Virus record (IMG/VR): IMGVR_UViG_2548877009_000012
Strand: one strand, 5' to 3'
DNA length: 35,879 bases
DNA from: a virus
Taxonomy: Duplodnaviria > Heunggongvirae > Uroviricota > Caudoviricetes
Below are positions 24,001-27,000 of this stretch, piece after piece (position 1 is the first letter of the stretch; every line of letters starts with the position of its first letter). The position numbers were made by a program.

Positions 24001-27000
24001 CAAAAATAAGTAAATCATGTCAACTATCACGGTGAGAAACCATGACATTTCTGAACCAGTTAATGCTGTACTTCTGTACGGTGGTCTGTGTGCTGTATCT
24101 CCTTTCGGGCGGATACCGGGCCATGCGTGACTTCTGGCGCAGACAGATTGACAAAAGGGCCGCTGAGAAAATCAGCGCCAGTCAGTCAGCCGGAAGCAAA
24201 CCCGAAGAGCCGCTCATTTAGCGGCAACTTTCTTAATCACACCTTTCGACGAGAAAATCCCATGTCAGAAATTACATCCCTGGTCACTGCTGAAGCAGTG
24301 AAGGACGTCCTGCGCTCTGAAGAAGTCCTGAGCGCACTGAAACAGAAACTTCGCCATAACCTGGAAGCGCGTCTTGATGCAGAAGTGGATGCCATTCTGG
24401 ATGAACTGCTGGGCGCACCGGCAGCTCCGGAGCCGGAAGGCATCGCGGGAGAGGGGAGTGCTTCAGATAGCGGTGACCCCACACCTGACAGCGACATGAT
24501 GATGTAAGCATGCGTCAGGGACCATCGGTGTGTGCCGGTGGTCTTTTTTATTGTTGTGAGCTTCCGGATTGCGGGAGGCGGGGTATGTACCAGATGGAAA
24601 AAATCACAACAGGTGTGTCATACACCACGTCAGCGGTGGGAACGGGCTACTGGTTCCTGCAGTTGCTGGACAGGGTTTCCCCGTCTCAGTGGGCGGCAAT
24701 AGGCGTGCTGGGGAGTCTGCTGTTTGGTCTGCTGACATATCTGACGAACCTGTATTTCAAAATTAAAGAAGACCGGCGTAAGGCGGCGCGGGGAGAGTAG
24801 ACGATGAATAAACAATACGAACTGGTTGTTAAAGGGATAAATATTTACCCGGATAAGATTACTGTTACTGTGGCGCTGGAAACTGGTGGGTATACGTCAC
24901 TGTTGTTGCCAAATGTGGTGATTGATCTTGATCGTGTTGAAGGTGCCCCGCTGGAGTTTTACGAAGCTGAGGCGAAAAAGAAGGCGAAGCAGTTTTTCAT
25001 GGATATTGCTGCCGGGTTATGTGAAGGGAACGAACCGTTGCCGGAAAAGCGCCTCTGTTCAGAAGAGCGGTATACCATACAAATTAACAATGCATATAAC
25101 ACGATACAGTCAGAAAAAGATGATATCGAATCACGCATTGAAAAACTGGAGAACAGCGTCGTTGAACTGAATAAAAAACTGTCGGTGCAGATCCCTTCCG
25201 AAGGTGAAAAAAAACGCCGCGATGAGCAGTTTGCTGCGTTTGACGATTATTGTCGGAAAGTGATGAGCAGAAATCTCGCAGAGTGTTTCCGTATTCAAAA
25301 AAACAGAGAGCGCTCTGCAAATAGTGAGATTCTGGATAATTTTTTAAAGGGGACGCATCTCGCCAGTGATTGTTTCATTGCTCATTCTTTTGGTGGCTTT
25401 CATGAGGCCATCAAACATGATGTTGAGAGAAGTCCAGGTATCCTCTGTTCCATTCCCGTAAGCATCGAAATAGACACAAATACGATAACCGGTGAACTCG
25501 TTACCGCCGGAGTCGGTATATTCCGTCATGAGGGGAACGATGCCAAAGGTTCCTTTACAAAAATCGGGCCGTTCTTTCTGAAGGTAGAGCGATAGTTTGT
25601 TAAGTACCCATCCGACAGCTCGCTCATTTTGGTTTATTTTCGTATCGCGAAACAAAAATTCGAAGCGGCCAGATGACGCATGGGTGCAACCAAATACCGG
25701 GGCGTATTCATCAACCTTTGGTGTTCCTGAAAACATGCAGTCCGTGCTCTCGAATGCAGATGAATTGCTGTTGATCCACTTAACAAAAGAAAAAAAGGTC
25801 TGAATCGCTTGTCTGTCTGAATATTCAACAAAATCCTCAAGGTGTGTCTCGATCAGTTCCGGGTGTTTACGAAAGTCATAATATTGACCGGGACGATATT
25901 TATGAGTGGTTGTTTTATCCCATGGTTGTGCTCTGCGTCCCTGTAAACGGAGGTCTGCCGCTGGATAGATAAGCATAAGTAATCTCCTGGTGGAATGTAA
26001 TCCACGATCATCCGGGGAAATTAAGAACCCGCCAGTGCCCACCACTGGTGGGGTGAAGGCTTAACATATCCAGGGATTCGGAACCGATAAATCCTGATAA
26101 ATATCCATGAACACCAAAATCAAATACGGCCTGTCGGCTGCCGTTCTGGCGCTGATTGCCGCAGGGGCGCCTGCGCCTGATATTCTCGACCAGTTTCTGG
26201 ATGAAAAAGAAGGTAACCACACCACGGCATACCGTGATGGTGCGGGTATCTGGACCATTTGTCGTGGTGCCACCAGGGTGGATGGCAAACCTGTCGTCCC
26301 GGGCATGAAGTTGTCGAAGAAAAAATGCGACCAGGTTAACGCCATTGAGCGTGATAAGGCGCTGGCATGGGTGGAGAAAAACATCCGGGTGCCACTGACT
26401 GAACCCCAGAAAGCGGGGATCGCGTCATTCTGCCCGTATAACATTGGCCCCGGTAAGTGTTTCCCGTCGACGTTTTATAAACGAATTAATGCAGGCGATC
26501 GCAGGGGAGCGTGTGAAGCGATTCGCTGGTGGATTAAGGACGGTGGCAGAGACTGCCGTATCCGCTCAAATAATTGCTATGGTCAGGTATCCCGTCGTGA
26601 CCAGGAGAGCGCGCTGGCGTGCTGGGGTATCGACAGATAAGCAGAATATTTTGCTGAAAAATGACGTTGGCCAACGCGGACGGATAACACGAAATCCTGC
26701 GAACTGGCAAAACCTAAGTGAATAAAAGTAAAAACCCCGTTTGTTGGCAGCAAGCGGGGTTTTGTGTTTCTGACCTTGGATAAGGCAAGGGAGAACATGG
26801 AAAAGTATAAACGAATTCTGTTGAGGTTGACTATGAAAAACGGCCCTGAACTGAAAGCGCCAGTAAGTGATGACATCAGCAGAGCGCTGGCTTTTGCTAT
26901 TAAGTGGGTGGCGGTTGGTATCGCTGTGTCTCCGATACTGTATGGGCTGGCAAAACTGGTCATTGCGTTGAAATCGTGAAGGGAGGATTAAACATGTCAG

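Follow-up and report, generated by a model that had tools for sequence, protein, structure and literature searches.

Evidence for a conserved antisense gene pair in the lysis cassette of an Stx1 prophage

What is encoded between the holin and lysozyme genes of a Shiga toxin (Stx) prophage, and can one stretch of that DNA specify protein on both of its strands? The question is raised by a stretch of 35,879 nt from a tailed phage (Caudoviricetes; IMG/VR record IMGVR_UViG_2548877009_000012), which we call the window. Between its holin gene S and its lysozyme gene R lie two convergent open reading frames (ORFs), one encoding 263 amino acids (aa) on the plus strand (24804-25595), and one encoding 210 aa on the minus strand (25344-25976), which we term gene A. 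They share 252 nt (25344-25595), comprising codons 128-210 of A and its stop. An earlier note on this DNA gave positions for the ORFs, the lysis genes and the overlap, all of which were correct on re-computation, and suggested that one of the ORFs could be an antisense artefact. Our comparisons point the other way. Both frames are under selection, and the overlap is best regarded as a conserved dual-coding feature in which a second gene, B, is overprinted on A; to this extent the locus is more interesting than was first supposed. We are highly confident of the anatomy, namely that both frames are coding and conserved, that the orientation of the genes follows a rule, and that the plus-strand ORF is a chimera ending in B. 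The functional mechanism is put forward far more tentatively, with chances that we place just short of even.

Gene A and the frame opposite it

Gene A begins with an ATG at 25976 and ends with a stop at 25344-25346; a Shine-Dalgarno (SD) sequence AGGAG lies at 25984-25988 on the minus strand, 7 nt upstream of the ATG. Five full-length homologues (~210 aa) are 53-65% identical to it, and a profile search with a threshold of E ≤ 1e-3 returned 251 cluster representatives from across genera, mostly 200-220 aa in length. The AlphaFold2 model, calculated from an alignment of 108 sequences, is a four-stranded sheet packed by helices (predicted local distance difference test, pLDDT, 95.8; predicted template modelling score, pTM, 0.91). 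A is predicted to be a cytoplasmic α/β protein. In the alignment R15, P18, E47, D48, E76, D79, R104, R110 and N115 are near-invariant. The homologues and the model together indicate that A is a real gene. It is not annotated in RefSeq complete genomes. An extended form of 233 aa starting at a GTG was considered and rejected; the homologues start at the ATG, and a cassette boundary at 26030 falls inside the extension.

The earlier note recognised no family for either protein. For A this stands, with no match in Pfam, PHROG, NCBIfam, PADLOC or the PDB; for the plus-strand ORF it does not, as discussed below. Comparison of 108 members of the A family with Pfam gave two stray matches to domains of unknown function (DUFs) and nothing else. 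PADLOC-DB v2 gave nothing significant for A, for the plus-strand ORF or for 12 distant A homologues, profile searches of PDB sequences with A and with B gave nothing below E 0.79, and a Foldseek search of BFVD with the A model gave no informative structural match (TM score ≤0.35). For B no family or structure match was found in the searches made. No toxin-antitoxin domain was found for A or the plus-strand ORF in Pfam, NCBIfam or PADLOC, and A and B are convergent, unlike the co-directional operon of a type II toxin-antitoxin system with its recognisable domains.

What of the opposite strand? The two frames are codon-aligned ((25344 − 24804) mod 3 = 0), so that plus-strand stops can come only from the A codons TTA, CTA and TCA. 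We compared the overlap in 12 lineages, the window and eleven other loci, whose mutual identity is 47-72% except for three close pairs. In 11 of the 12 the antisense frame is free of stops over the last 82-88 codons of A, with 4-15 stops opposite the first ~128 codons. Taken lineage by lineage, Fisher tests give p values from 5e-5 to 0.04 in ten, those for L008 (p = 0.43) and L005 (p = 0.83) being not significant. The open stretch begins directly after the codon for Leu128 of A in ten lineages, providing B with a fixed stop, and this invariant leucine is encoded by TTA or CTA in 11. Because the frames are codon-aligned and the open antisense stretch recurs in independent lineages, we judge the overlap to be more than chance.

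Conservation extends to the antisense amino acid sequence. When synonymous codons were shuffled within each gene for seven lineages, the observed antisense identity was 0.490 compared with a null value of 0.294 ± 0.010, a separation of 20 standard deviations, and 0 antisense stops were present in the overlap where 22.9 were expected; none of 2000 shuffles reached the observed identity or stop count. In the non-overlapping N-terminal part of A, used as a control, the corresponding identities are 0.326 and 0.303. Within the three close pairs, changes that are nonsynonymous in A are silent in B in 8 of 14 cases inside the overlap, compared with 4 of 21 outside it. B also has start signals just outside A. 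An ATG with GGAG, GAGG or AGGAGG ahead of it is found 3-7 codons past the A stop, 11 codons past it in the homologues from Hafnia, Klebsiella/Raoultella and Pseudomonas syringae (A identity 38-47%), and 21 codons past it in the closest relatives of the window. The N-terminal residues of B that lie beyond A are also conserved, as MSLVRELKSLG (L051) against MTLTNRLKDLG (P0170), and SEALDKF against SEILDNF. B is kept in at least 10 lineages, including those of Klebsiella, Hafnia and P. syringae, and is sometimes annotated as a hypothetical protein (e.g. WP_172751482.1). With both frames open, conserved beyond what the partner demands, and provided with start signals, this has the character of an antisense overlapping pair, and B is most simply read as a protein-coding gene of ~90-104 aa overprinted on the last ~83 codons of A.

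The orientation of the pair is constant. In every phage locus examined (the window and ~15 related loci) A lies on the strand opposite to that of the flanking late genes, whether between the lambda-like tail genes I/J or M/L, alongside the tape measure gene, upstream of the holin gene, or in the S-R gap. B shares the strand of the late operon and starts 4-42 nt after the late gene that comes before it. The hosts that carry A in lambdoid tail modules are Klebsiella, Enterobacter, Hafnia, Salmonella and P. syringae, to which are added the Stx phages of pathogenic Escherichia coli. Several A homologues stand alone, with no DUF1327 gene nearby, and some members of the family are found outside prophages, beside insertion sequence (IS) elements in soil metagenomes. 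The A homologue of a P22-like Salmonella prophage (L008 9618-11257) is directly upstream of the holin and ~3 kb from a Kiwa system (KwaA/KwaB); the interval from the Q antiterminator to the lysis genes holds both.

The plus-strand chimera and its cassette

How is B carried in the window? S (24585-24800, plus strand) encodes a class II holin (pinholin) of P21 type (PF04971, E 7.2e-33), and R (26107-26640, plus strand) a phage lysozyme with a signal-arrest-release-like N-terminus (PF00959, E 7e-25); on the same strand, these two form a P21-type lysis cassette. The ATG of the plus-strand ORF is 3 nt past the S stop, with GGAG upstream. Residues 1-96 (24804-25091) are a DUF1327/YdfR domain (PF07041), scoring 116.3 bits against a gathering cut-off of 25 (E 7.5e-34). 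They are followed by the coiled-coil C-terminal part of a YdfR-family protein (aa ~97-165, 25092-25298) from which the native stop is missing. Residues 1-168 align with PHROG 2091 over its full length, and YdfR-family homologues end at that point (169 aa in PhiR12_1, 181 aa in L058). A typical YdfR has 103-183 aa and ends after the coiled coil, whereas the plus-strand ORF runs on to 263 aa. Its N-terminal ~163 residues can thus be read as an ordinary YdfR-family protein, to which a foreign segment of 98 aa has been attached.

That segment (aa 166-263 plus the stop, 25299-25595) is B without its own ATG or SD. It is 75-83% identical to the free-standing 104-aa B proteins P0164 and P0162, and residues 166-263 correspond to residues 7-104 of the L060 B with 83% identity. 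In the gut-metagenome contigs L060 and L061, 4 nt separate a P21-type holin gene from a free-standing 104-aa B downstream of it. The order in L058 is a coiled-coil gene with homology to aa 76-162 of the plus-strand ORF, a stop, ~100 nt, AGGAGG, ATG and B. Within 25299-25343 of the window there is no in-frame ATG, GTG or TTG. From the ends of the homologues, the free-standing B of these three loci and the absence of a start in that interval, we infer that a deletion joined a YdfR-family gene in frame to B, removing the first ~6 codons of B together with its SD and ATG. With its start signals lost, B in the window can be produced only within a late protein of 263 aa, of which it forms the C-terminal third. 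The fusion is kept in a Stx2_499-type variant in which the DUF1327 domain is replaced in frame, giving an ORF of 161 aa. In RefSeq the Prokaryotic Genome Annotation Pipeline (PGAP) annotates the ORF over codons 1-83 only, as a DUF1327 pseudogene 'missing C-terminus'.

The N-terminal 96 aa and the position directly after a P21-type holin are shared with ydfR of the K-12 Qin prophage, which lies between essQ and rrrQ; the loss of the stop and the attached B set the window ORF apart. Residues 1-72 of K-12 YdfR bind RNase E in its N-terminal catalytic domain and co-purify RNA (PMC13232886). In L058 another N-terminal domain (MKxLxVTVxPFxG..., L058 4357-4902) replaces DUF1327 before the same coiled coil, and so the coiled coil that precedes B appears to combine with different N-terminal domains. 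Downstream of Rz, at 27619-27843 on the plus strand, the window has a small ORF that shares 48% identity over 61 aa with the N-terminal domain of this 181-aa L058 protein.

How general is cargo between S and R? The earlier note took the two genes to be normally adjacent, which is not so in these phages. The region is matched by 369 phage records, and a gene for a 'YdfR family protein' lies between S and R in BP-4795, Stx2-86, the PhiR12 phages and others. Of 5426 complete E. coli genomes, 1402 contain matches to the gap DNA, with a median of 2 sites per genome and mostly over the 5′ part of DUF1327. In this respect the finding is less unusual than it seemed, as S-R cargo is routine in these phages. 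The note also described the gap as AT-rich cargo, which is borne out, and the cargo is genuine and mobile. The GC content of the gap is 0.43-0.47 compared with 0.51-0.58 for the flanks. Variable DNA begins after about codon 85-150 of ydfR, and in PhiR12_1 and Stx2-86 unrelated DNA with different minus-strand genes takes the place of a cassette at 25253-26030, covering both strands. The homology to PhiR12_1 is interrupted at 25252 and picks up again at 26031; that to Stx2-86 is interrupted at 25053 and picks up again at 26030. The window version is rare: 8 of the 50,697 phage records have it, as do 119 of the 5,426 E. coli genomes. The Stx1 and Stx2 phages L001 and L002 share positions 25254-26112 with 100% identity, despite a divergence of 3-10% in their S and R, and the cassette has therefore spread recently; being invariant, it makes the ratio of nonsynonymous to synonymous change (dN/dS) within E. 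coli uninformative.

The alternative cassettes each have a different small minus-strand gene (L003 2215-2475 for PhiR12_1; L004 2585-2899 for Stx2-86), starting 36-54 nt from a shared segment (window 26031-26106) that holds the promoter-like block of A; that of PhiR12_1 overlaps the 3′ end of ydfR by 53 bp. The slot may generally hold pairs of a plus-strand YdfR variant and a minus-strand gene under one conserved outward promoter. A literature search on an S-R 'hotspot' and on the accession numbers gave nothing relevant.

A candidate effector and its antagonist

What might such a pair do? A faces against the late operon and has a conserved promoter-like region of its own, on which grounds we take it to be expressed in the lysogen. 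B follows so closely behind a late gene, on the late strand, that we take it to be made only when late transcription fires. The lysis timing supposed by the earlier note can thus apply to the plus-strand ORF alone, and not to the 210-aa gene. In the mechanism that we favour, A would be made in the lysogen from its own promoter-like region and would be an effector harming the lytic cycle, most likely for anti-phage defence. Once that same prophage entered the lytic cycle, late transcription would cross A in antisense and yield B; B would neutralise A, and the prophage would escape its own weapon. Considered separately, A is probably a lysogen-expressed effector, likely anti-phage, and B is probably its late-expressed antagonist. 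A role in defence or anti-defence is compatible with the architecture. In the decayed Salmonella prophage remnant L005, A is intact and B has been lost through three antisense stops, consistent with a role for B in the late phase only.

A similar arrangement is known from Pseudomonas phage JBD26, whose Tab protein is bound by its partner, anti-Tab (Patel et al. 2024). The tab/atab module is dispensable as a pair, while deletions within atab alone were unobtainable, and the authors consider that Tab without anti-Tab is lethal to the phage (PMC10884400). As with A and B, the effector is on the minus strand within the late operon, the partner is on the plus strand right after a late gene, and the two overlap convergently at their 3′ ends, by 47 bp for tab and atab in GenBank record JN811560; the window and ~15 related loci all have this layout. 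There are also marked differences. Tab has 83 aa compared with 210 for A, and the overlap of A and B is ~250 nt, codon-aligned and conserved across orders. Tab is inserted between terminase genes, whereas A and B are found in the tail module or the lysis cassette. The Tab effector has its own promoter, and A has a candidate promoter with weak −35 and −10 elements in its conserved upstream block, below the default of the scan. The function of Tab/anti-Tab has been shown experimentally; that of A and B is suggested by layout, and in the window the partner is fused to YdfR. Homology of the two systems was considered and rejected on the hhalign probabilities, which are 1.2% and 0.1%. The kind of system, a prophage effector with a late-operon partner, is thus known, and what is new is a pair of uncharacterised families with an unusually long and old overlap. 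If the comparison with Tab/anti-Tab is apt, A and B would be a second, unrelated family of defence with a late-operon antidote, and could influence the induction yield of Stx phages and superinfection.

The BstA system shares the concept of a defence locus carrying an element that spares the lytic cycle of its own prophage, the element being aba, 63 bp at the 5′ end of bstA (Owen et al. 2021, PMC8585504). Unlike the protein-coding antisense gene B, aba is a DNA element, and there was no BstA-like match in PADLOC.

Most of the antisense overlapping genes described from E. coli O157:H7 and P. aeruginosa are embedded cases that are taxonomically young. As here, they have a long antisense ORF, an SD of its own and signs of purifying selection (e.g. 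PMC9927249, PMC8850804, PMC5960689); the two P. aeruginosa genes are termed evolutionarily novel in the abstract of their paper. By contrast A and B overlap partially, at their 3′ ends, extend from the Enterobacterales to Pseudomonas, and form a mobile phage module with two predicted protein products. It is very rare for a long antisense overlap to be demonstrably conserved in both of its frames between bacterial orders. The present one allows a clean comparison, for which L005 (B lost, dead prophage), L058 (A lost), and the free-standing and fused forms of B are natural controls. Since annotation pipelines miss the locus, calling the plus-strand ORF a pseudogene and leaving A uncalled in RefSeq complete genomes, a family of 250 clusters and its antisense partner are effectively invisible.

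A bolder proposal, which we regard as improbable, is that A and B are an ancient dual-coding unit of the Enterobacterales and Pseudomonas, in which the antidote is read from the complementary codons of the C-terminal β-hairpin and helix of A. The two would co-evolve nucleotide by nucleotide, so that a cognate B would be automatic; the overlap would be the longest-lived of its kind in bacteria or phages, and A a new defence fold. Dual coding would then make the specificity of self-immunity a built-in consequence of antisense coding.

A number of observations weigh against the effector-antagonist mechanism. B in the window has no start of its own, and the cassette is invariant in E. coli, giving nothing from which the function of the fused copy could be judged. 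In the close pairs sense-synonymous change is not clearly reduced in the overlap (14/246 compared with 27/381), and therefore short-term selection on the B sequence is moderate. Two non-phage members of the A family keep the antisense frame open and have no ATG, which self-immunity does not explain. In L058 A is a pseudogene and B is intact. The putative A promoter is a weak match to consensus (7/12), below the default threshold of the promoter scan, and A and B lack homology to Tab and anti-Tab. The L058 locus (5064-5480, GCA_002232215.1) has an A that lacks residues 16-96 and is out of frame, opposite a B of 104 aa with an AGGAGG SD.

The most serious competitor, which is possible though we doubt it, holds that A has no part in defence and is instead an enzyme of lysogenic conversion or host fitness, or a toxin, with B its regulator or antitoxin, or else that convergent transcription of A and B is a switch between lysogeny and lysis. 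The invariant acidic and basic residues of A are enzyme-like, and its relatives beside IS elements in soil lie outside prophages altogether. Convergent overlapping transcription units would silence each other, and a late-strand terminator after the module in the tail loci suggests that B may have its own transcription unit. Yet no toxin or toxin-antitoxin domain was found in Pfam, NCBIfam or PADLOC, and the genes converge instead of forming an operon. The spacing of B, 4-42 nt behind a late gene, is like that of an anti-defence gene of the late operon, and the strong bias of A to opposite-strand sites in late operons is what prophage defence morons such as tab typically show.

It is unlikely that the overlap in the window is a relic, the fusion of YdfR to B being an accident of recombination that left no functional B, so that only A, and perhaps the N-terminal domain of YdfR, matter. 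Such a view fits the loss of the SD, ATG and ~6 N-terminal codons of B and the pseudogene call by PGAP, and the invariance of the E. coli cassette means that nothing there shows selection on the fusion. Against this, the frame of the fusion is exact and has been kept again in the 161-aa ORF of the Stx2_499-type variant, and the fused allele is present in 119 complete genomes, in both Stx1 and Stx2 phages. Moreover, if A harms the lytic cycle, inducible phages with A and without B activity should be counter-selected.

Might the antisense frame be kept open for translation as such, with ribosomes protecting the late transcript from Rho-dependent polarity, or as an RNA element, the B protein being immaterial? 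Openness of the ORF is indeed the strongest signal, and the short-term constraint on B is moderate. We consider the idea very improbable, given antisense identity so far above the synonymous-shuffle null and the conservation of B residues that lie beyond A. B spans about a third of the antisense stretch, and ~380 nt remain untranslated before the next late gene; an RNA element, for its part, would have no need of an SD, an ATG or a fixed stop. That the 263-aa ORF truly encodes one long protein and the 210-aa ORF is an artefact has practically no chance of being correct, since the missing RefSeq annotation of A is outweighed, and the artefact refuted, by full-length homologues, some standing alone without a DUF1327 gene, a family of 251 clusters across genera, a confident fold and the SD of its own.

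Signals around gene A and neighbouring genes

Alignment of the regions upstream of A in the E. coli, Enterobacter-type, Hafnia and Klebsiella loci reveals a conserved block on the minus strand (26060-26099), TATCAGGAT..N..CCCTGGATATGTTAAG, also written TATCAGGAT...CCYGGRTATGTTG. It contains a weak sigma70-like promoter with a −35 element TTTATC (26086-26091), a 17-nt spacer and a −10 element TATGTT (26063-26068). A scan of 24500-26700 at default settings found no sigma70 site. The 5′ untranslated region (5′-UTR) of A is predicted by RNA folding to form a hairpin at 26028-26052 on the minus strand (CCACCAGUG...CACUGGCGG), and homologous hairpins with different stem sequences are present in L054, L008 and L005; these fold modestly better than shuffled sequences (z −1.2 to −1.8). 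A terminator-like hairpin with a T-run, found by a consensus scan and weak with its 6-bp stem, lies 26 nt past the A stop (25303-25318, minus strand). In the tail-module loci (L037 ~735-760, L011, L053, L054, L048, L049) there is a canonical intrinsic terminator in the orientation of the late operon (e.g. GCCACCTTAAGGTGGCTTTTTT), between the A promoter block and the next late gene, J; the S-R version in the window has no equivalent.

The window covers the late region of an Stx1 prophage. The toxin genes stx1A and stx1B are at 20021-21247, ~3.3 kb upstream of S, and are followed by nanS-p, small ORFs and then the lysis genes. The 5′ part of nanS-p, which encodes a SASA esterase, contains a direct repeat of 183 nt with 92% identity and a spacing of 199 (21977-22358). 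The gene is split into overlapping ORFs at 21752-22234 and 22119-23891, both encoding the segment AGQSNxMSYGEGLPLPETYDRPDP..., whereas nanS-p of E. coli 94-3024 is a single coding sequence of 1965 bp.

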